From: Macrostomum lignano
Lineage: Eukaryota
Assembly (NCBI GenBank): GCA_002269645.1
Contig: NIVC01000056.1
Span: forward strand, 434,001-498,000
DNA length: 64,000 bases
Direction: 5' to 3'
Part shown: one piece after another, positions 14,091 to 60,639 of the stretch
How the letters are laid out: each line of letters starts with the position of its first letter
How positions within the stretch are numbered: the stretch's first letter is position 1
The notes under the pieces: generated by a model
What the model saw: only the letters and a program-made list of their open reading frames with translations
The model's database searches: none
What the model was told of the DNA's origin: nothing
Made by a program: the position numbers and the translations under genes

Positions 14091-17821
<3,731 letters not shown>

Positions 17822-18754
17822 GTAAGTGAGGATGAGCAATATGTGCAAGTGGGCGATTTCAGGTGTGTATAGGAGGTGAGAGACAGATATGGGTCGCATC
17901 TCTGATAACAGAGATGCGACTGTATTTTGGATCCAAATTTGGATTTAGCAGTGTCGATTTCGGATACTACAATTCAAGTAAGAGATGGACTGTGGTAGAG
18001 ACCCAATTAAGAGACATGTTATTCTGCGATTGCAAGCTTCTTGGGCTTCTAAACTTATCAAAGTAAGTTCAGCTGCCTTTATTTTTATAAAATAGCTTAG
18101 GTATTCTTCTTTGCTACTGAACTGAAAGTAGAAAGCTGTTTTGCTAAGTATATATAGCAATCTGCTAAAAATCAAGCCTTTCGACCATAGACGTCGTTCA
18201 GAAACCTCTCGTCCGACTGCTAAGCTCGTGAAGCCAAAAGTTCACTAGCAGCTACCAGTATACCAAATAGCAGTTAGCAGTGCTTCATGAAATTGGTCCC
18301 AGTCTACGTCCAGAGGCCACTGACTGAACTTTGACGTTGTCAGCGACGGAGTGGGTTTATAAATTTTTTTTCTTTACCAGTTTTTGGCTCACTGTCCTCT
18401 ACAGCAAGAATAAGGAGTGACACTTGTTCGCAAACCGCATTGTTTTTAAAGGACCAACTATTTGGCGACAGCACCAAGTGGCAGACGCATCGACCAGCAC
18501 TTTGGACAATAACTCGGACGGATTCGAGGCAGGTGGTGACGCCCACGACACAGCTGACCACTAATGCGACTAACACGAGATAATCAGACAATAATTGTGC
18601 AATACGACAGCCCACTTGACTTGCAGTTGCTAAGAGCTGCGAGTGTTCGTTACTCACAAAATAAACACACGACTTAAGACTTCAGTGTATTCCAGATCTG
18701 ATCAATTAAGCAAGTCATTCATTCGTGCTTCATCCTTGGCTTGGGCAATGAGGC

Positions 18755-38910: not shown

Positions 38911-40690
38911 CCGGTGCTTCCAGCCGCGCAGATGCTAACTGTCGATGGTACTGTATATTATATATGCTCCTATTCTATACTTTTTCGTCCCTGTTGGGCC
39001 TGGACTCAAGAGAGGCTCACTCTCTCCCCCCTGCTCCCCAACTAAGGCTTGCTAGTTGGCTGTGGGAGCGGATGGCCTCAAGCTCGGAGAGATTGGGCAG
39101 CAACTAAAAGGCGACTCAATTGGCTGCGTCAGAACAACGATGACTGCCAACTTTGGCTATTTCCAAGTGAAGACAAAAAAGCTGTTGAAAGCAACTCGTA
39201 CCGGATCAGCTTTTTCTGTCTCTTCTTTGTATATTATTATTTATATAATGCCGAGCAATTTTTACTGCTTCTGCAAAACCCAATGCAGTTGGGTGTTTAA
39301 ATTACTTGTTTTGCCTGGAGGACGAGGGACAGACTGTGAGACAGAAGGGGAGACGAAATTAGGAGGGAGGATAACACGGCTCCGCTGCGGAAGCTGCTGA
39401 AAATCGAATGAGCGAGCGATGGGGGAGCAAGGGGAAAGCGAGGACACGAAATGGGAGGAAGGCGGATCGAGGAGGGGGGCTCCACCGGCTGCCTCTGCCC
39501 CCTATCTACCATTCCGAGGGTAAGTAGACACGGGATATCGCGCAGATTTTAGCAGAGCTTCGTAGCAAAGGATGAGGTGCGCGTGCAGCGATTGGGTAAG
39601 GAGAGATGATGGCATGGCTGACTCGCAGTGTAATTTCCGGCATAGATTTAACCTGACAAACACTGCCTCTGTGGACAACTTGCCTATTGCAAACTAGCTT
39701 GATTATCTCTCTTACTTTACTTACTGGTTCTTTAGCTCCTTTTATTTTAGTTTCCCGTGAAAGAAATGCAAAAAAATTGACTGTATACATGTAGACAGTA
39801 CATGTAGACAGTGCCTGTTAGTGGGTTGCTGTAATTATAGTTTGATTTTGGAGTTCGGTGCAAAGTGGTTGAGAGCATAAAATAACCTCACGTCCTTTCG
39901 GAAGAGGAGCTGGGAGCAGAGGGCTGGCATCTCCCCTAAAAGGGGATGTGGGTTCTGCACGGCTGCCGAACCTCTCACTGCCCCCTCTCCCCCTCCCGTC
40001 TGTCCACAAGGGTGGCAAGAAATTTTCCGTTACCATGGAAACCATGAGCTTTAAATCCCCCGCTGCCCTTTGCTTCGCAGTTCTATAGCAAATCAATCCA
40101 TTGGTAACTGCCTTCTTGCCCCGAGTTTGACTTCGCCCTTTCTTCCGTGCGCCCGTGCCCCTCCTCGCCGACCTCTCTTTAATCATCTTTTTGACTTCAT
40201 CCCCCATTTTATTTGATTCGTGCCCTGACAGAGTTAGGTTTGAAGACGGCCAGTGAGAATAGAAATTAGAATTAGATCCATGCACTATTTGTTTCAGAGG
40301 AAATCTGTTTCACTTGGTAGAATCTAAATGCGTTTAAGGCCCTGACCAACGTTATAAGTTTGCTTTCTTTGTTTGTCTTGTCTTGAAGAAATTTATTAAT
40401 TGGTAGCAGTGAGCCTTAAACAGTGCAACAATTTGCCTTTGCTGCACCAGACTTGGATACTAAAAGATGAATTTTCGTTAATTTAAAACACAAGTAGATC
40501 ATGACAATTTTTCTAATCGTGTCCCACTGTTCCCAGAACCATACAGCTCTTTTCTGCCATAAAACTGCAGTTTGTAAAGGCTCGCAGCATGGGCTAGAAC
40601 TAGGCCTGACAAAACTGGGTCAATTTTGGAGAGAACAGGGCTAGCAGCAGGCACACTGTTGGATAATCTGTTTGCAAACACTCGCACTTA

Positions 40691-41031
40691 AGTAGTATAT
40701 ACCATACAAAATTGCCAGCAAACCGTTCTCAGAATTCAATCAATTTAACCCTTTATCAGTGTGAAATGACTCATTTTCCCTTCATTACCGCTCGTCTTCA
40801 CTTCGCTCAACTCGCTCCGCTCATCCTCGCTTCATTTCGGTCAATCTCCCCATTTCACACTTACAACGATTAATTCTCATTGAATTATGAGAATACGCTC
40901 TCGTCGTTCGCTTTGGTTTGCTGGCAATTTTGTATCGTACTCAAACTCTTCCAACACTTCTAACACTCCCCCCCACTTCCAACTCTCTATAACCCCAGGT
41001 CGCGCCGCAGGCGCAAAGGGTATTTTTCTGT
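40691..41031 (+). repeat. Left terminal inverted repeat of the Polinton
   Basis: Reverse complement of 59275-59613 apart from a few substitutions and a variable CTTCCAACA short-repeat patch. Confidence 0.97.
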
Positions 41032-41619: not shown

Positions 41620-42610
41620 ATGGACTCAATTAATGACGAAAATCATGCAAAGCATGCGACCTATCAGGACGATCGGCTATATTTTATAGGAGAAATTGTA
41701 GACACTCTAGGTTTAGATGATAATAAACATAGCCACACAATGTTAAAAAGATTGGATCGCTTAGGCAAAAAACTTGACTATGATATCGATACATTTAAAC
41801 TTGCTTCAAAATATGCAAAAGAAGGAAGGCCAATATCCTTTAAGAATCACGGTAGAAACTATAGGCTAACAGACTCCGATGTGAAATTTTTATTGGAGAC
41901 TCACACTAAAAAGGACGGTGGGTTGCTGCCCATTTTACCAATTCTTTTAGGTCTCGGAGCAGCTGGAGCAACCGGATTAGCAGCCAAAAGAATTCACGAT
42001 AACAGAAAACAATTAGCTGAATTAAAAGCAAAAGAAGGGGGTATATTACCCCTCGCAACTTTGCTCCCAATAATTTTTGCAGGAATAGGAGCAGCCGGTG
42101 GAATAGCGGGAGGAGCCGCCGGAATCACAAAGGCAGTAAATGACAAAAAAGCTGCGGATGAAAAAGCTAAACGAGATGCTGAATTTCAAAGACAGCAAAT
42201 AACGCAGGATGCACAATTCAAACAGAAACTCATTGACACTATTAATAGTAGTTCGGCAACACCAGCACAAAAAAGAAATGCAGAAGCTAGGTTAGCAGCT
42301 GGAAAAGGTTTAATTTTAAAAGGAACGACTCAAGGAAGCGGAGTTGTCGCAGATAAACTACATGAGTTTGGGCAAACTTTAGAAAAAAACGGGTGAGAAA
42401 GCTAAACGATTTTTTGACAATATTGGAGCCAATTTTAGACAAGCTGTTCAGAAGATTTTTAATAAGTTAGGAAAAGATTTTAATATAATCGAAAAACATG
42501 ACGGAAGTGGATTATATCTAGAAATGCGACCAAAAGCAGGTTCAGGAATCTTCTTAAATGCAAACGTTATGGGTAGTGGGCTACTGTTACCGAAAGCAGA
42601 TCTCGAATAA
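41620..42610 (+). pseudogene. Polinton virion protein with amphipathic GGxLP...GAAG modules (candidate membrane-active core protein), frameshifted after 42390
   Basis: GGLLPILPILLGLGAAG and GGILPLATLLPIIFAGIGAAGGIAGGAAGITKAVNDKK modules. The downstream frame gives the GSGLYL, GSGIFL and GSGLLL motifs typical of this Polinton family (recalled, not searched). Confidence 0.7.
41641..41674. repeat. Double-hairpin element copy 1 (in-frame in ORF 41620)
   Basis: AATC-ATGC-AAA-GCAT-GC-GACCT-ATC-AGGAC-GATC. Confidence 0.8.
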
Positions 42611-42636: not shown

Positions 42637-45600
42637 ATGGAACAAAGACTGACCCCAGATCAGATTCTACAACTTCTTGCAAATGAGCGCGAACAGTTCA
42701 ATCGATTACAAAGACAGGTTGAACAAATTGAACAGCGCCAAAGACAAAGACAAAGACAGAGAGCAAGAGAAAGACAGAGAGCGAGAGAAAGAGAAAGGCA
42801 AAAACAAAGAGAAAAACAAATAGAAGATCAGCAAATAAAAGAATTAGCAAATAATATAAGGGCAGAATATGAAATGAAGCGTTTAATAGAAAAAGCTGAA
42901 TATGAAAAAGGAATAGCAGAATTAGAAAAAAACCAAAAGAAACCCATTCGTCGGAAACCGCGGAATAAATCGGATTAAAAACCATTAGATGAGTTTATTA
43001 GGGTTTATCGATTTGAACCAATGCAGAATGTCCTAGATTTTATTGAAACCCAACTTTCAAACGGATATAGTGTTGAAATTACAAACGCAAGAGTACAATA
43101 TTTTTATAACAAAACCGGTGATGATCGCGAAGAGATAAATCAATACTTAGCAACATTTTATAATATAAGTCAGTTTCAAGCTTGGTTTAAGCATTTGGTA
43201 GAAAACTACGACATGAATTTAAGTGTGTTTTCCGGAAGACTTAAAATGACACCAAATGAAATTACACTTAAACACGAAAGGTCAAAGCAGGGTATGGGTA
43301 CAAATGTCATGTGTGAAATTGTGGAGTATCAAGATGAGTACTGTTACATACCTAGCGATGGAATTGTTTCTATAAGTGTGTTGAATTTATTTATGGCGAT
43401 AAAGCCCCATCCAAAGACGAATATGGTGCTTGGTTGTACGACTCAAGAACCCAAAGAGGTTTAATGACAAATTCAAGAATTGGAAAATTCAATGAATATT
43501 TTAATCTGAACATAGGGTTGTATAATCCTAATAATCCTGGAATAGAACCGAAGTCTCGAAGAGGGATTCACCACGATTGGTTATTAATAAATTACTATCA
43601 CACACCCGATTACCACACATTGGTCATTATTGCCTTATATCCAATAAACAACGGGGAATCGCCCTCGATCGGATAAAAGACAATTATAAAGTAGTATTTA
43701 AAAACCCAACTTCTGAAAATGTTAAAGAGCTAAAAATGTTCAATACATCCACAAATCCGAATAAATCAAATGTATACATATTTGATTTTGAAACATATTT
43801 AAATTATAATCAACAAGCATGCCCGTATGCAGTTGGTCTTTTAAACTATAACGACTTTTCCAATAATTGTAATGAAACCCCAGAGGCAATAAAGAAACTA
43901 ACTAAGATCTTGATTTCAGATCGCGGTTGTGATTTTCAAACAGACGGCGAGAAGGTTGACTGTGTTAGAAAAATGTTTAAATACCTTGGTTCAATTAGGT
44001 CAAAAAAGATTGTTTTGATCGCACACAACTCATCCCGCTTCGATTCATACATACCACTATTTTGCAATATAAAACCAATTAAAATTCTTAAAACCCCAAG
44101 AGGAATATTATCAATCACTTTTGTAAACGATTACGCGTCAAAAGCGGTTAGGGCGTTTATAAACAAAAATAAGAAGAAGAATCACAAGGATTCGAAACAA
44201 ACCATTACGATGCTTTGCTCATATCAACACGCCTCAATGAGTTTAAAAAAGTTTTGCTCGTCAATGACAATTAGAAAGGATTTGCGCAAGACCTCAATGG
44301 TTCATGACATTACCGAACACGACTACCTAGAACGGATGGATGAATGGTATGAATATTTACAATTTGATCTTATTTCTTTATGCGCCTGTATTCATAAGTA
44401 TAACGAAAAAGCATATAAAATTGGAGGAATGACAATGTTTGATACTCTTACATGTTCGAGTTTAACATTAAAATGTTGGTTTAAAGATTTTGTTAGAGTT
44501 GAAGACAAAATGAAACAATACCTAAAGACAAAAGAAAAAACTAATTACATTAAAAAAGTTGAAGAAATAATATCTCCTTTGAAAATCGAAGATTATTTTG
44601 ACTTGAGCAAACTTGAAAAAACGAAATACCAACCACTATTAAGAAAAGAATTTTCAGTTCACTCTCACACCAACCCTTATATAAGAAGGTTTATGCGAGA
44701 CGCAGTCAAAGGAGGCAGAGTATTTGCACTAATAAATAAATACGAAAGCGACTGTTTTCAAACAATCGTAGACATCGTAAAAGATCATTTAAAAACACCA
44801 ACAAGCGACCCATGCGAGGTTATATCAACTTATCTCAAAAGCGACATGGAAGAAAAAAAGAAAATCGCAATCAAACTAAAAAACCAATTGGGTACCGTAT
44901 CAGATTGCTTAATGAATTTTGATGGAGTCTCGTTGTACCCATCCGCCATGTCTGATAAGGATAGCGAATATCCAAGAGCAGAAACAGCCAGAGTTTTTGA
45001 TATAAGCGAGGAAAAAGATTTCTTGACACAATTTAATTCACAAACCTTTCGACCAAAAACAGCGGTTTTAAAGATTATGTATGAGAATCCTACTAACGTT
45101 TTTCTTCAACATCTCCCATCGAAAGATAAAGAGAAATTTTATAATCCGGAAACAAAAGCAAATGAAACAAAAACATTAAATAGGTTTAGAAATGGAAAGG
45201 TAATTGACACCCTATGTTCCGTAGACATACAAGAAATTGTAAGAATGGGTGGAAAAATATTAAAGATATACAGTGGAATTGTATATGAAAAAAATTACGA
45301 TTTCTCTCCGTTTCAGAATTATATTACAAACCTTTTCGAAATGAGAAAAGTATTTAAAAAAGAAAATAATGAGGCGGGTTCTGAATTGGTAAAAACATTG
45401 TTAAATTCCTTATATGGTAAAACGGTTCAAAGAGACATTACTTTCACAACTCATCTCTGGAATTTGCAAACATTAAAAAAAGAATACGACGACACAATCA
45501 AGTCTTATGAGAAAATATGTGATGACTTATTTTATGTTGAAAAAAAGAAAGACACACAAGAATATGTAGATGACGACGATAATCCTACAACAGGTCTTTG

Positions 45601-46279
45601 TCCGGCGCAATTAGACATATTTATTTTAGCTCATTCAAGAAGGATCATAAATAATTTTATCACGTCTATAGACGGTTCAAAGACTCCAGAAATTTATTAC
45701 GGCGACACCGACTCGTTATATAAACATAAAAAACATTGGGATAAATTAAATAAAAACGGGCATGTCGGAAATAATTTAAGTCAAGGAAAAAACGATTATG
45801 GAGAGGGTGGAATTATATTCGGATATTTTATCGCTCCTAAAATTAAATATTGTCTTTTGTTGAAAGACGATTTTATTATGGAAGAGAAAGAAACAATTAT
45901 TGGATGTGCAAATGATAAGGTTAATTTCGCATCGTTTAAAACTTTATATGATGGTCAATCAATAAAAGTAAATAATAATGCTCCGTGGAAACGATCGTTT
46001 GAAGGTGGCATAACAATTCCTCAAAGCGGCTCAACCATATCAAAAACATTTACTTCTACGATAAACACATATAAAAGAGAAAAACCGGATAAAAACGGAG
46101 TTATGAAACCATTCTTTAAAAACTATTTTGATGATAAACCAGAACACGAACATTCAATTGAATATTATAACAGTTTACTTTTTGACGTTGACTATAATTG
46201 TTTTGAGTTTGATATCATATCGGATTGGAAACATATCGTCACCATAATCACTATATTTCTGATTGATAATTATATTTAA
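42637..46279 (+). pseudogene. polB: Protein-primed family B DNA polymerase; N-terminal part has an in-frame stop (42976) and frameshifts, C-terminal ~900 codons open
   Basis: ExoI YIFDFET, ExoII AHNSSRFD, Pol A FDGVSLYPSAM, Pol B KTLLNSLYGK, Pol C YGDTDS. ORFs 42637 and 43021 are in the same frame, separated by one TAA. Confidence 0.95.
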
Positions 46280-47739: not shown

Positions 47740-48656
47740 ATTCCTAATATGGTTTGAAACTTGTCACGTTATTTGATGTTGGCCGTGACCTTAAAAGGGC
47801 CGTTTTAGTCCCAAAATAAGTTGAAGTCAACTTAGGCGAAGTGGATGGTGTAGCGGAGCACTTGGCAATAAGGGCAGGAAACTGCCGTAGTTGTCTTTAT
47901 TGTTAATATCAGTATTAAGTTTGGTTGTTACTGGCAATAAACAGACTATAGCTTTCTGGGCACTGGCGGCTGCAACAATGGGTTGAATATAATTTGGATA
48001 TGAAGTCAAGTGGCAGGCGAATGACACAATGGCGATGTGACGTGAGCAGTGGCTATGAGCACCGTGAAGGCAGTGAAACGTAGTGGCGAGTTTGGCGTCG
48101 GTCGTGGCGTGAGACAGTCAAGTAAGTGTGTGAGCAGGCTGGCCCAGGCAGAGGGGCCGTGGTGAGAAATAAGGAGGCTCGAGGCAGCCAGACAAACAGA
48201 TAAGACAGCTAAGAGGCAGCAGGGAAGAAACCAAGAGAGGAGTGCCGCCGCCAGGCGGGGGGGGTTTAATAAAAGAGCGCAGAGGGGGGTAGCGCGAGCA
48301 CGAGTGATTTCATTGGCTGGCGAGAGAACTTAAAATTATCGATCGTGCCAATTTTATACGGTCGCGAGAGAGGATAGCAAAATATACAGTGAATTAGAAA
48401 TTGCCACAAAATCGTTGGGCATTACTACAAGTAAACGTCGCAATAAACGAATGGAAAAGTTTAGTTGAAACGGTGAAACTGAAGGGTTGAATGACTATGG
48501 AGAACAGCAGTCCAACGGCCCTTTTCGGGACCACCTTAAACTGACAACGTCACAAACTCTTCTTACTTTTTTACTATATAAATCATAATCATAATTTATT
48601 CGATCACATTACTTAACATGTGACCCTTACGTTGGTTGAATCGGTCGCGTTTCATT

Positions 48657-49066: not shown

Positions 49067-50994
49067 TTAAGTTATTTGGACTGTGGGCTTCTCTAAACAT
49101 GCGCTCGCAGCAAAACTATATCCTGCTGATGTGCTACCACAAGCTGCTGCGCCGCGAATAAAATGTGCGGCATCTGCTCCTCCGGTTCTAGCACAAAAAC
49201 CCATAAGCGTTCCCGTTTTATCTAACTGTCCCCATGTCCCACTATCAAATGTGAAGAAATTTTGCCCAATTAGTGTGTATGCTTTAGTTGAAAATTGAAT
49301 GAACTTAATTGATACCAAACCCTTTGATTAAGAATATTGATTTTAAACAGATGCCAATCACCGTTATCAATATTGGCGTAGGTTACTGTTTGATCCGCGT
49401 CACTACTAACATCATTACGGACTGTTGCGCCGTCTGATTTTTTATTACTCCAAACAACTCCAAATCGATCCGTCCACTCACTAGCAAACACTATCAAACC
49501 GGCGTCGGTTGTTAATCCAGACCCAAATTCTGCTGTTGGTCGTTCGTGACAATATGCATACAACCAAACATCTGCACCATCTCCTCCAGAATTAGCAACT
49601 CTGAAAAAGAAGGAAGCTGCAATATTTTTAAAATGTGTGAAATTGAATTGTAATGCCCCACTTACACCTGAGGTTTCGCGGGTAATTCTAGCACCATTTT
49701 GATAATCAATATATGAAGCGTCACTAATAAAACTTCCTGTTGGAAAAATATCACCAGCGGTGGTTGGATTTTGGTATCCAGTCCAATTGAAAATGACTGG
49801 CTCAAATAAAGTGGCATCAATCGCAGGTATTCCATCCAATTTTATTTTATCGTTAAAAGACATTCGGCCATCCGCCGTTTGGGTTACAACCGTATCAACA
49901 TAACCTTTAGTAGCAACAGAAGTGTTATCGTTTATGGTCGAGGTATTAGTAATTGTATTACCACCCATATCCACTGATTGATTAACTACTCCCAAATTTA
50001 AATCAAGAATTGTAAAAGTCTGTCGATAAATCTGGAAGGTTGACAGTCCGGGATTGGTAGAACCAGAGGTTGATGTAAGACAGAACAATCTGAAATATGT
50101 ATAGGTTTTATCAAAATTTTGTGTGACATTAAATGTTTGAGTTGAGTTATTTATTGCTACGGAACTATCTGCCGGTATTAAAACATCCCAACTTGTATTG
50201 TCATTACTCCCCTCAAACCGCCATGACGCGGGGTGCTCGGTTGAGGGAGATGGTCTACCACGCAAATCAATTTTATAACACATTATAGCGGATGGGCATT
50301 GAACCTTAATCCAATAATCGGTTTGTGTATTATTGGTTGCCCAATCTGTTGAATCATCCCCATCAAAAGCTTTCCAACTTGCAAAATCGGTTGTATTAAA
50401 TGCGGTGCTTGCGGTTATTGCAAAACCATTTCCACACCAATCTGACATTGTTGGTACATGGCCGGTTTCAACCGTTTGGAATCGATCCTGTTTTGGAATT
50501 CCACCTCCAACTAAATTATCAACTTCAGTTTTAGTATATGAATCAGCAACATTCCGTTTCAAATTTAACGAATCATCAATTTCTGTTTTGTTATAAGAAT
50601 CAGCAACATTCCGTTTTAAATTTAGAGAATTATCAACTTCGGTTTTGGTATATGAATCACTGATATCTCTTTTCAAATTTAACGAATTATCAACTTCGTT
50701 TTTGGTATAAGAATCAGCAACATTCCGTTTTAAATTTAGTGAATTATCAATTTCTGTTTTGGTATAAGAATCGGCTGTATTGCGTTTTAAATTTAATGAA
50801 TCATCGATTTGCGTTTTGGTATAGGAATCTGCAACATTCCGTTTTAAATTTAGTTTAGTATCACTTTCAGTTTTTTTATAACCTTCGTCTTCATTAATAT
50901 ATCGGTTGTCTCTGAATGTAACGCTGATTCCGCCAGATCCGCCACCACCAGCACTTGTTGTTCCGTTCCATGAGGGTGTTCCACTAAATAACAT
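49067..50994 (-). pseudogene. Fibre/receptor-binding protein: 19-aa repeats, discoidin (F5/8C)-like domain, ATKGYVD motif, L-type lectin-like C-terminus; frameshift near 49310
   Basis: About 6 LNLKRNVADSYTKTEIDNS repeats; SWKAFDGDDSTDW...SWRFEGSND; IDNGDWHLFKI, and GFCARTGG...HFI in the shifted frame 49067-49318. Confidence 0.8.
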
Positions 50995-52482: not shown

Positions 52483-53275
52483 TACTCCTCATTTTCATTA
52501 TCCTCTTTTATCAGATCTGTTAAGATACGATTTCTCCTTTCTAACCTAGGGTTGATATATAAAAATGTTTGTATTGACTATCATCCCAATTTTTTTTTAC
52601 ACATAATTTTAAATGGTTTTGTATCCAACCCAGGATTAAATCTTGCGTGTATATTTTGTAGATCATAGTTATCTAAATCAAACATTACACAACAGCTAGC
52701 ATTCTTTTTTATAATCGAATCTAATTCTCTAAATGACTGTGTTAGATAAAACGCTCCAATTCCATCTCCTCTGCCACTAACAAAAATTTCCTTTTGCAAT
52801 TCTTGATCGCCGTCGTTAATACAATCATCAAAAATAATTAGTGTTTTATCATCTTTTGGAATTTGATCATAGGATATTCGGGTTGATACTCTAACGGTTG
52901 GTGATCGGACGAAGTCCGCGACCCTATGGGGCGATCTTTCGGTTGTGTTTTCTGGCGCTTGTGCCGTTGTTTTACATAAATCCTCAATGTCATCGAGTGT
53001 AAAGTTTGGTTCGTCGTCATCCTCATATTGCTCATACGCTCTTAACATTCTAAAAAAACATCTTTTTTTAATTTGTTTTTTAATCCATGTTTAAGAAATT
53101 CATAATTTTTAATTCGAGGTTTGTTAGTATAAATTATTAAATTATTATAGTCTAACATTCCATCGGTTGTTAACAGGTCATAAACAAAGTGTGTTTTTCC
53201 TTTACCCGATCCCCCAATTACTAAACAAAGAAAAGGATCGTTTGGAAATATCTTATTATGTTTTGCTTTTACCAT
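52482..53275 (-). pseudogene. FtsK/A32-like packaging ATPase, frameshifted
   Basis: Walker A GGSGKGKT, Walker B LIIFDD, SGRG..IGAFYLTQS. Fragments 53042-53275 and 52581-53048 plus a C-terminal shifted frame. Confidence 0.92.
52903..52936. repeat. Double-hairpin element copy 6 (in-frame in ATPase)
   Basis: GATC-GGAC-GAA-GTCC-GC-GACCC-TAT-GGGGC-GATC. Confidence 0.9.
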
Positions 53276-53325
53276 TTTTAAGGAAATAATTTAAATAGGG
53301 GGCGACGGTCGGAGACCTGCACCGC

Positions 53326-55535: not shown

Positions 55536-56021
55536 ATGGAAAATACGATAAAAGATTGTCTTTGTAAACCTATTTATGATAAGGTTGGTTCTGACAGAAT
55601 ACTAAATAAAATATTTCAAGATGAATTAATAATTGCAAACCGTATTAAAACAATTCAAATGAGACTTGGATCTCTTTATGAATTATTAGCTATTGAACAT
55701 TTTGGTTTTGGAAAAATAAAGAAAATTGATTTAATTCATACCGAAAGAAAAATTGCGTTAGAGTTAAAATCTTCTGATAATACAGATAATTCATCAAGTC
55801 GATTTAGAAATATTCAAAAGTTATTAGAATTTAAATATGTTAATCTTGAATTTGATTTATATTATATTTGCATTAATAATACTACTAAAAACCCCGTACA
55901 GAAGATATTTGATAATGGTGTTACCTTGTTAACAGGGGAGTTTGCTTTAAATTTTTTATATGGCGATCAATATTTGGAGATCATTAAACTGATAGAGAAT
56001 TGTTTTTTAATTAACCATTAA
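55536..56021 (+). CDS. PD-(D/E)xK restriction endonuclease-like protein, Eco47II/Sau96I-like
   Basis: IQMRLGSLYE...KIDLIHTERKIALELKSSDNTDNSSS resembles the D...E-x-K-x-x-x-N-T-x-N-S-x-S signature of the Eco47II family (pattern recognition only). Confidence 0.7.
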   Translation: MENTIKDCLCKPIYDKVGSDRILNKIFQDELIIANRIKTIQMRLGSLYELLAIEHFGFGKIKKIDLIHTERKIALELKSSDNTDNSSSRFRNIQKLLEFKYVNLEFDLYYICINNTTKNPVQKIFDNGVTLLTGEFALNFLYGDQYLEIIKLIENCFLINH

Positions 56022-56149
56022 AAATGAGCCAACTTGTGTTTGAAGGTGGATTTTTGGATGTTCAAAAAGGATTAACAAGCTTACCAAGCGTTTTTACTAC
56101 TGGAAAATATACGAATGAATTACACATCCCAGGGTATTCGTACGCAGGT

Positions 56150-56449
56150 TAACCGAGGCCTGAGTGAGGAAGTCAATGTCCTTGCTAGTCACTATTTGTG
56201 GCGACACCTTCAAATTGCGTGAAACCCGTCATACAGCTTCAAGTACCACTTCAATTGAGAAATCTTTTGAAGGAACAGAGGTAACTCCTCTTCCCAAAGG
56301 TAACAAGCTTGAAGACAAGGTGGCAATGCGCAGCCAAGCTCCTAAGTATAAAAATATAAGGAGAAGGTTCAGAGAGCAGACGGAGGTGGGCGGTAATTTA
56401 TCCGCTTAAGGTGTGCTCCAGCCTCTTTCGAAAGATTGAGGGCAAACTA
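56150..56449 (+). ncRNA. Group I intron, subgroup IC1-like, 300 nt, no ORF
   Basis: P1 CAGGU/GCCUG with U.G at the 5' splice site. P3 CACCUUC/GGAGGUG. P4 UGCGUG/UGCGCA. P5abc with GAAA tetraloop and GUAACAAG bulge. P6 GCC/GGU. P7 GAGAGCA/UGCUCC with bulged A. P8 GGGCGG/CCGCUU. P9. Removal restores GYSYAG-PGT in frame. Confidence 0.93.
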
Positions 56450-57309
56450 CCCGGTACTGGACTGGATTTGAGATTAAATCCAGATGACACTCCAAAAGCT
56501 GATTCAATTCCCATTAATGGCATTGATTGGTTAGCATATTATCATGACTTAGCATACAGAGATGCTGATAATAATTCTCCTGAGGAAGCATTAAGATTAA
56601 AGCATGAAGCTGATAGAAAAATGATTGAGGGATTAGACAATCTACAGGGCTTATCAGTAAGCCAAAGATTAACTAGGTGGATGGTTAAAAAGATCTTGCA
56701 ATCTAAAGTTAAATTTGGTTTGGGAATTAATTACAACCAACATGGAAATAATTGTGTCGAGTGTTTATTATTAAGTGGTGGTGGGTTAAGTTCTGATGAG
56801 GCAAAGGTTCTTCACAAAGAATACCGAAAGCCTAAATTTTATAGAAAAATCATGAACTTCAAAAAGAATGAAATTTGGTATGCTGATTTAATGGCAATGC
56901 CGCCCGATATGGGATATAAATATATTTTAACCATATTAGATGGTTTTACTCGATATGCGTGAGCTGTTCCTTTGAAATCCAAAAAAGGAGAAGAAGTTGC
57001 TTCTGCTTTTAGAAGTCTTGGAGAAAAAAGTGAAAGGTTGTGTGTTGATGAAGGAAAAGAATTTTACAATCATCATATGTATAAATTGTATCATTTTGAA
57101 AAAGGAAAAGAAAGGAAAAAAGACGCGAATGGTGAGTATATTAATAAAATTTATTCTATTTATGGAGAAAGTAAAAACGCACTGATTGAAAGATTTAATC
57201 GAACTTTAGGTAAGAAATTGTGGTTTCAGTTTAGTCTGAATGGTAACCAAAAGTGGGTAAAAATATTACCAGACGTCGTGAAAGATTATAATAATTCATT
57301 TCATTCAGC

Positions 57310-57343
57310 TATCGTTCCTTCGGAACGCGGACTTCGTACGATA
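57310..57343. repeat. Double-hairpin element copy 7 (in-frame in integrase HSAI/KMTP motif)
   Basis: TATC-GTTCC-TTC-GGAAC-GC-GGAC-TTC-GTAC-GATA. Confidence 0.9.
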
Positions 57344-57654
57344 AAGATGACTCCTCAACGAGCTTATAACAACCCTTAAAATGTTAAAGTTACTTTTGGA
57401 TCACTTGAAAAAAAGAAAACTAAACCTTTTAAAGTTGGTGACTCTGTTTATATCTATAAATGGAAAGATAAGTTTGAAAAAGGAAGAAAAGGATATTGGA
57501 AAATAAGTGAAAAATTTACTATCAGTAAAGTTTTAAATACAAATCATACGACCTATATCATTGCCGATAAAGATGGTGAAGAAATATTGGGATCGTTTTA
57601 TGAGAACCAGATATTATCTGCAAGCTAAGCTTGGGCAGATAATGTTAGTTTAAT

Positions 57655-59274: not shown

Positions 59275-59613
59275 ACAGAAAAAGACCCTTTGCGCCTGCG
59301 GCGCGGCCTGGGGTTATAGAGAGTTGGAAGTGTTGGAAGTGTTGGAAGAGTTGGAAGAGTTTGAGTACCATACAAAATTGCCAGCAAACCAAAGCGAACG
59401 ACGAGAGCGTATTCTCATAATTCAATGAGAATTAATCGTTGTAAGTGTGAAATGGGGAGATTGACCGAAATGAAGCGAGGATGAGCGGAGCGAGTTGAGC
59501 GAAGTGAAGACGAGCGGTAATGAAGGGAAATGAGTCATTTCCCACTGATAAAGGGTTAAATTGATTGAATTCTGAGAACGGTTTGCTTGCAATTTTGTAT
59601 AGTATATACTACT
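59275..59613 (-). repeat. Right terminal inverted repeat of the Polinton
   Basis: Reverse complement of 40691-41031. Confidence 0.97.
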
Positions 59614-60639
59614 CACTTAGGCCGCGTAATTCGGCCGCATTGGTAATTTGTGAAGTAGAAACTGTTGGAAAATCCTCAGCCGCCATGGTCCCAAATGGAA
59701 GCCCTAATAAAGTGGAATCTTACCATGGTCGCAGCCGTGAGATCAGAGGCTTGATGTGGAACAAGCAATTTTGTCAATTATTGATTCAAAGATGTGCATA
59801 TTTTAGTTATTCTTTTAGATTTAAATTGGACACCATTTTTTCAATCAATACTAATATCAAGATTGCAGCGTAGGTTGAGATTTTTAATTAGAATTCGCAA
59901 AATTCATGACAAGTTCGATCCCCGATCGCTTACACGGCAGTATGGTTTCCTAGAAAAGAAAACTTCTCTTTGGTAGTATTCTTTCTACGTTTTTAAAGCT
60001 ACTCAGGTGGATATCAAAAGAAAAACTTATTCTATCTATACTACTTTCATAGAAGTAGGAGTAATCTTAGCTTAAAGTTTCTATTTATTTATCCATAACT
60101 CGCAAGACTCACAGTGAATAGCGATATAAATGAATAAATCCAGTTGCACCAGCAGAGATTTTACATCAGTAATAATTACCTCTGCCAGAATTTCCACTGC
60201 GAAAAGATTATTAATAAAATGGACTGAACTGATATTGGTAGAGCCAGGCAATCAGCACTCAACGCAATAATGCCGACCTTAATCCGTGAAGGTACCCAGG
60301 CAATGGAGAGGTACGTGCTTTTTCTAAGCAAACAGCCCGCCTGTTCCAGCCTCTCTCTCTGTCCACTGCTCCCTGTACAAATAGTGGAAGCCAATTATCG
60401 AGATGGGATACATTTGACCGTGGTTTTAATCAGAGCGGGGAGAATCAGCCCCCCGTGGTTGTATGGAACTGCGCTGAACAATCTTTATTATCAAAGCTGA
60501 GCTGCAGCCAACTATTGTAACAGATTCGGTACTACACCATGCCTCGAGGTAAAACCAGCATAATATTTAAAAAGCTGTCTTTATTTAGCTATCTTCATTT
60601 TTATGCACAACTTACTGGCCCTATGTAGAATCCGAGCGT

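Follow-up and report, generated by a model that had tools for sequence, protein, structure and literature searches.

Nuclear group I introns are described, in the accessible parts of two earlier accounts, as restricted to the rDNA of microbial eukaryotes (PMC3679873; PMC8395846). A 64,000-nucleotide stretch of the Macrostomum lignano assembly (GCA_002269645.1, contig NIVC01000056.1, positions 434,001 to 498,000 of the forward strand; hereafter the window) carries a candidate for such an intron inside a protein gene of a Polinton. It raises the question of whether a self-splicing-type intron can reside in an animal chromosome and, if so, why it lies between two particular codons.

The insertion had been read from the letters alone, in an initial annotation, as a 300-nt group I intron that starts with TAA (56150-52) and divides the PLA2 motif ELHIPGYSYAG|PGTGLDLRL. 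Sequence and Rfam model RF00028 agree with these boundaries (56150..56449, forward strand): the covariance search that the annotation had proposed covered the whole model at 56140-56440 with 63.3 bits, above the gathering score of 50 (E 1.7e-15). The helices P1, P2, P2.1, P3, P4, P5abc, P6, P7, P8 and P9 fall where they had been placed, and P10 forms five of its six pairs, as noted there. Pairing was examined in 49 loci of the same intron family (family A) from the same genome, which represent 45 distinct copies. P7 (56372-78/56414-19) is paired at all six pairs in 45/45 copies, and its remodelled sequence retains the G-C guanosine-binding pair, as had been claimed for the window copy; the U.G pair of P1 (56149/56158) is kept in 44 of the 45. 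Furthermore, we observed double-sided changes in P3 (29/45 copies), in four stacked pairs of P2 (15/45), in P9 (7/45), and in P8 and P5b (2/45 each), single pair breaks coming mostly from locus L039, whose 5' half is truncated. P9.0 (56420-21/56447-48), recognized here, makes A56449 the terminal position. Minimum-energy folding gave a modest excess over shuffled sequences (z -2.1, 3/100). Because the model match, the covariation and the in-frame intron-less alleles described below concur, the intron and its boundaries are established by sequence, and we regard it as virtually certain that the insert is a genuine group I intron.

P2.1 and a P5abc domain with an A-rich bulge and a GAAA loop are features of subgroup IC1, and the window intron has them all. 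IC1 introns usually also carry a P9.1/P9.2 extension, which is absent from the window intron; because just seven bases follow P9, we call it IC1-like, a subgroup call that rests on these features, the Rfam search having returned the generic group I model. When five loci were scanned together with Rfam, the introns of L034 and L021 went unnoticed; narrower scans recovered those of L034 and of L022, which is of the same type as L021, and the family-A intron of L034 scored 48.7 bits, just below the gathering score. Group I introns of the IC1-like kind abound in the viral contigs of IMG/VR, which are often GVMAG-labelled, with at least 122 matches to one core motif (L163-L284). The family-A variant of P7 occurs in none of the 120 readable introns among these 122 contigs, and therefore the family-A core differs from them beside the binding site. 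The translations of three database proteins (P0002, P0176 and P0203) imply, from peptides only, that in another sample this variant of P7 occurs along with a nuclease encoded by the intron.

The interrupted gene consists of exon 1 (56024..56149, forward strand; 42 codons, the last being the Gly codon GGT) and exon 2 (56450..57628, forward strand), which starts with a Pro codon and encodes the remainder of the PLA2 domain and an rve integrase. The annotation had called for a comparison of sibling copies, and a search with the joined-exon pattern revealed intron-less alleles at three places in the genome, with zero control matches and the junction in frame at all three, alongside intron-bearing copies across the family. 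In this form the gene is a single ORF; the protein of one such allele has 423 aa and matches PF08398 (PLA2-like) as well as rve, the latter at E 1.8e-6, which is under its cut-off. We rejected removal by the spliceosome, as inspection found no GT-AG pair that recreates the intron-less junction. Read-through translation was likewise rejected: every one of the 48 family-A introns counted contains 2 to 8 stops in the exon-1 frame. Exon 2 of the window copy bears two in-frame stops in its integrase part (56960-62 and 57377-79), and therefore splicing alone would give no full protein from this copy. The earlier claim that expression of both PLA2 and integrase depends on the intron is thus incomplete: the gene is split by it, but the integrase has these stops, and translation from an internal Met (exon-2 codon 58) might, in principle, make the integrase independent of splicing. 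The ten codons that end exon 1 (56120-56149 in the window, and their homologues) are much more variable than exon 2, with YSYAG, SMNFTG, SHNFTG and SYNFAG types, as if this end were a contested nuclease target or a recombination boundary. One family-B-like protein from a public assembly (P0177) has exons 1 and 2 joined, consistent with an allele that lacks the intron or with a transcript that was spliced.

The gene belongs to an 18.9-kb Polinton bounded by terminal inverted repeats (TIRs) of about 340 bp that are 96% alike (left, 40691..41031; right, 59275..59613) and by the 6-bp target-site duplication CACTTA (40685..40690, forward strand, repeated at 59614-59619). It encodes a protein-primed family B DNA polymerase (pPolB; 43736..46279, forward strand; PF03175, E 6.5e-17) and an A32-type packaging ATPase in two frames (52581..53290, reverse strand; weak PF04665 matches for both pieces); the capsid and protease pieces of the element gave zero Pfam matches. 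An ORF on the reverse strand (49270-50994) is fibre-like; in it, 18-residue repeats in tandem accompany an F5/8 type C domain, and it is likely an attachment protein. PLA2 is fused to the integrase, and a stretch resembling adenovirus protein X (PF05829, E 3.5e-4, under cut-off) lies on a separate ORF (41620..42396, forward strand), so that the element has no PLA2X; in adintoviruses, PLA2 is fused to protein X, and the accessible part of their description mentions no such intron (PMC8502044). A multi-copy repeat foreign to the Polinton is nested at 47762..48554; it is missing in sibling elements and found alone elsewhere, and its 793 bp have TG...CA ends like those of a solo LTR. With this repeat and the integrase stops, the window copy of the Polinton is decayed.

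Three distinct introns occupy the single PLA2 site. Family B introns (836-895 nt) end in G and interrupt the same G|P junction as family A; all 28 that were scored match RF00028 (72-91 bits), and their exon-2 protein is about 60% identical to that of family A. A third intron type (42.9 bits) lies at the same 5' site in 7/7 sampled loci (L021-L027). It is a divergent group I intron of about 325 nt with a different P4/P6, whose in-frame 3' exon apparently begins with Ala-Gly-Leu-Thr rather than Pro-Gly-Thr, given a putative 3' splice site; about 24 rows of one listing of genome matches resemble it. Furthermore, a metagenome contig carries a PLA2 exon, an intron (80.6 bits, terminal G) that contains a nuclease ORF, and then PLA2-integrase, with the intron at the same site. 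This same-site intron (73% over 211 nt) and the introns of viral contigs from the environment (70-79% in the core) are the nearest relatives found for the window intron. The nearest relatives being viral or metagenomic, transfer from virus to virus is no less probable than a source in microbial rDNA. In IMG/VR, no relative was confirmed for exon 2 (2 candidate stretches) or for the nuclease alignment (195 candidate stretches), and none of the 66 matches of the 5'-junction pattern in the viral collection was accompanied by PLA2 or the nuclease.

The window intron ends in A, and the initial annotation had spoken of restoring a terminal G. The A is not decay of this copy but the state of most of the family: over 95 matches of the family-A 3'-junction pattern, of which the 49 loci read cover a part, the terminal residue was A in 81 and G in 14 (counted by eye). 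Terminal G is also the state of the family B introns, and of locus L096. In terminal-A copies, diversity is 0.004 in P4/P6/P7 vs 0.067 at unpaired positions. Codons 1-57 of their exon 2, which precede the first Met, have a pN/pS of 0.08 (22 distinct sequences; 8 of the 38 loci were dropped for a frameshift or stop), and their exon 1 one of 0.34 (21 distinct sequences; 3 dropped). These values show purifying selection on the terminal-A copies. The first exon-2 codon is CCG in 13 of the 14 matches with terminal G and CCC in 74 of the 81 with terminal A; CCC adds one P10 pair, and the association could be compensation or plain linkage.

The terminal-A introns might instead be splicing-dead passengers, with PLA2-integrase supplied in trans by terminal-G, family-B or intron-less relatives. 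The check for the junction in RNA, as called for in the annotation, returned no joint of exon 1 to exon 2 at the family-A locus L034 in the contigs of three runs presumed to be RNA and of a fourth whose kind is not given, which agrees with dead passengers but is a weak test, because contigs lose rare forms and the runs may contain DNA. The guessed-RNA contigs bridge the intron/exon-2 junction of L034 unspliced, and those at the 5' junction hold just 23 exon letters, below the count needed for bridging. At positions 672-834 of L034, a contig of one run (X3) leaps 161 bases from the intron interior to exon 2, away from the splice sites. The dead-passenger reading also draws on the trees, where A and G are interspersed (8 and 6 changes on the two trees, of intron and exon, at least 3 forced, the A/G change being unrooted), so that recombination could have joined A to sequences on which selection had acted in the presence of G. 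The in-frame stops of the window copy fit with it too, as does the long exon-2 frame, which is kept in 20 of the 38 terminal-A loci and missing from 18; but this frame is also missing in 5 of 10 terminal-G loci. Against dead passengers stand the near-invariant core of the terminal-A copies, the exons under purifying selection, and the many haplotypes on both sides, terminal A directly preceding 19 different exon-2 starts. Moreover, the coral mitochondrial ND5-717 intron, which has a terminal A, is ligated exactly in vivo at low efficiency, according to the accessible part of its report (PMC6545197). We therefore consider dead passengers unlikely, and lean towards the view that the terminal-A form splices in vivo; such introns would probably splice slowly.

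Immediately upstream of exon 1, a free-standing ORF of 161 aa (55536..56021, forward strand), whose stop lies two bases 5' of the exon, encodes an Eco47II-like nuclease of the PD-(D/E)xK type, as judged from its Pfam match, fold and motif. The window protein matches PF09553 (RE_Eco47II) at E 0.0013 and 18.8 bits, below the cut-off of 25.9, and the same family is matched by 22 of 24 relatives, 12 of them above the cut-off (30.2 bits for the close relative P0003). The predicted structure (model pLDDT 90) has EcoO109I as its top fold match among 48,161 chains (Z 9.4, barely over the background range; rmsd 3.7, 160 aligned; next Z 6.5), and EcoO109I ranks second by Foldseek. D65 and E76-L-K78 are invariant in 10/10 sequences. 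In family B, the homologous ORF lies within the P2.1 loop, flanked by perfect 12-bp arms, and reads into the core; in at least 8 database clusters, nuclease proteins extend into an intron core likewise. Both gene arrangements are thus present, and pN/pS of the nuclease is 0.24 when free-standing (8 sequences) and 0.53 when intronic (14 sequences), the latter indicating weak selection. In L037 (11-688) and in most family-A loci, an ORF that is HNH-like by motif inspection, with zero Pfam matches, replaces the Eco47II-like ORF upstream of exon 1. The HNH-like gene, not the Eco47II-like nuclease, is also found upstream at all three intron-less places, which agrees with the mechanism proposed below, although the sample is too small to test. 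Weak relatives of the HNH-like ORF adjoin introns in five viral contigs. A Pfam scan of the ORFs of the window element, a fragmented copy, found no methylase family.

The junction itself points to the target of this nuclease. The GGT before the intron and the CC after it form a split GGNCC site (56147..56451, forward strand), and in the intron-less loci L037, L038 and L095 the insertion junction is the sole GGNCC. Between the TIRs of the window element there are five GGNCC, all within the nested repeat (47797-48532). Without this repeat, the element (18,130 bp) has none vs 10.1 expected (Poisson 4e-5), no other of the 256 gapped words is as depleted as GGNCC, and zero was reached in 0/200 third-order Markov simulations. 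Of the 1024 5-mers, four are missing on both strands, precisely the four GGNCC words. Gly-Pro is also absent from the 3,848 ORF residues of the element (6.7 expected). In contrast, the host flanks are undepleted (92 vs 101.6 expected). In 8 kb of a family-B element that has diverged (28-58% protein identity), GGNCC is absent vs 5.7 expected and is again the most depleted word. Near the introns, we found none across 49 family-A loci (78 kb) and two overlapping sites in 1 of 25 family-B loci, loci within each set being related, so that these counts are not independent. One-mismatch words show no depletion, and we rejected the idea that terminal A is an escape from a near-cognate nuclease site.

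The site of EcoO109I is RGGNCCY, a longer word. Because all GGNCC are gone, not a subset with a longer site, the pressure acts on the 5-bp site. Eco47II is associated with GGNCC in the available portion of one report (PMC10305163), and the Eco47II-like nuclease of the element very probably targets the same word, to judge from this pattern. The PLA2 loop has Gly-Pro in 33 and Gly-Ala in 4 of the 37 homologues that display it, and the four Gly-Ala homologues (PLA2-integrases P0179, P0180, P0182 and P0184) have zero Gly-Pro anywhere in their 447-490 aa. The Gly-Ala loop may be a second escape from the nuclease, and these elements are candidates for having the nuclease without the intron. The Ala-Gly-Leu-Thr start of the third intron type would avoid GGNCC as well.

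We propose restriction without modification, in which GGNCC is purged, the intron sits on the last site and the nuclease drives homing, as the likely explanation of this locus. The Polinton nuclease would cut GGNCC during virus replication, and the virus would be immune because its DNA, from which every such word is gone, offers no target. The conserved Gly-Pro of PLA2 is always GGN-CCN, and silent recoding is therefore impossible. The intron between the Gly and Pro codons takes this last site out of the DNA, and splicing would return Gly-Pro to the mRNA. In an intron-less relative, the nuclease would cut at the PLA2 site and repair would copy the intron in; because such a relative has a single GGNCC, a 5-bp cutter would act there like a homing endonuclease. 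Homing endonucleases have long recognition sites, of 14-40 bp. Here, the purge points to 5 bp, and the intron splits, given the inferred site, the very site of the intron-less sequence. The position of the intron would be explained by this logic of nuclease and GGNCC. The free-standing nuclease of family A would then correspond to collaborative homing, and family B to an intron-encoded nuclease. We guess that nuclease expression would be confined to the lytic phase, since a 5-bp cutter would otherwise be lethal to host chromatin. That the intron gives both protection from the element's own nuclease and homing is an inference we hold with good confidence. The complete proposal, a selfish module that combines a methylase-less 5-bp restriction enzyme, a purged genome, a last site hidden by a ribozyme, homing to a unique site and mostly terminal-A splicing in an animal nucleus, may equally well prove right or wrong.

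The nuclease could instead be chiefly a weapon against host or competitor DNA during replication, with the intron as antidote and homing as an incidental effect. The purge takes all GGNCC with no long site, so such an enzyme would cut any unprotected DNA, the host flanks carry the site about every 500 bp, and one nuclease relative is a restriction gene fused to a methylase (P0040). However, the ORF has moved into the intron, in family B and in the database clusters, as homing genes do, and three different introns lie at the one site. A role chiefly as a weapon therefore appears doubtful as the main one, although weapon and homing roles are compatible and not exclusive. It is more improbable still that the purge of GGNCC was driven by an outside enzyme, from an earlier host or from a large virus in the same cell, and that the intron came to lie within a conserved Gly-Pro by chance: conserved sites are preferred by mobile introns, and cleavage of GGNCC by the ORF is putative, but the element encodes a relative of a GGNCC enzyme adjoining or within the intron, and the purge is seen in two diverged families.

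The surroundings of the element show that its host is an animal. Homeodomain, fibrinogen-C and ankyrin genes flank the element; at 17500-17830 (forward strand), the host homeodomain is followed by a further stretch that we take to be the CVC domain of Vsx/Chx10 genes. In the 764-Mb assembly, contigs C506, C952, C393 and C67 carry both Wnt genes and intron-bearing copies. The Wnt matches come in two to four near-identical copies, and intron copy counts are therefore not independent insertions. Although such viral group I introns have so far been reported from protists, in the accessible part of that account (PMC12220804), it is barely conceivable that the elements come from a protist, whether symbiont or contaminant, whose DNA was assembled along with that of the animal, given that the TIRs and the target duplication join the element to flanks with animal-type genes, that copies share contigs with Wnt genes, and that the stretch is found in 20 runs of 7 studies under a single organism label throughout. 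The initial interpretation is thus supported in that animal nuclear DNA has a Polinton/adintovirus-type PLA2-integrase gene interrupted by a group I intron that is IC1-like; what it had missed is the family-wide terminal A, the Eco47II-like nuclease and the logic of GGNCC.

The Eco47II and EcoO109I restriction-modification systems (PF09553) are related in sequence, fold and GGNCC-type site; in the element, by contrast, no methylase was found, and protection apparently comes from site loss and the intron. The homing endonuclease I-Ssp6803I is cyanobacterial, lies within a group I intron and has a long target, and we know of no genome-wide site purge for PD-(D/E)xK homing endonucleases of its kind. 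It belongs to the same catalytic superfamily, and this family is listed in the available text of one account (PMC6083498). Phage collaborative homing, described in 2009, likewise has a free-standing nuclease beside an ORF-less intron, with the insertion site as target and the gene later intronic, as far as the accessible account goes (PMC3984707); here, the genome of a single animal has both stages, the virus is a eukaryotic one and the enzyme is of the type II restriction type. The nuclear IC1 introns with His-Cys genes also share the nuclear location, the IC1-like fold and an ORF in a peripheral loop, but are, in the part of their description available, found in rDNA only, with His-Cys enzymes and sites of 15-20 bp (PMC3679873), whereas here we see a protein gene, a restriction-enzyme fold and an inferred 5-bp site. 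The hexacoral ND5-717 intron, also animal and with a terminal A, is mitochondrial and obligatory, lies at an unrelated site and splices in vivo at low efficiency, according to the accessible parts of two reports (PMC8146996; PMC6545197), whereas splicing is inferred here. Putative introns in shark rDNA spacers are mentioned in the available part of a review that cites a meeting abstract (PMC8393795).

The closest precedent is that of RF00028 introns in Polinton-like viruses of cryptophytes, Paulinella and Desmodesmus, where, as in the window, a group I intron lies within a protein gene of an integrating virus. In the accessible part of the report, these introns are restricted to protist hosts and interrupt a short gene that precedes the one for the capsid, and a nuclease is not annotated, in contrast to the animal host, PLA2-integrase gene and site-matched nuclease of the window (PMC12220804). 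Such protist cases being already described, the novelty lies in the animal host and the mechanism. Within the searchable literature, outside which most subscription papers fall, we found neither the window intron nor any other group I intron reported from a Polinton of an animal, and no intron ORF of the Eco47II type. The single ingredients all have precedents there, but the combination of an animal host, a 5-bp enzyme, a genome-wide purge and a majority terminal A has none.

Well over a hundred group I intron copies of three types thus lie in the chromosomes of an animal, in contrast to the stated confinement of such introns to rDNA and protists. The natural A and G alleles on near-identical cores make the strictness of the terminal-G rule directly testable. 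Furthermore, a single genome holds both the free-standing and the intron-encoded stage of the nuclease, and so offers a natural snapshot of a proposed route to mobile introns. The purge suggests that Polintons compete through DNA cleavage in real virus replication, and, if the proposed mechanism is true, a restriction enzyme becomes a unique-site homing nuclease among relatives without a long target.
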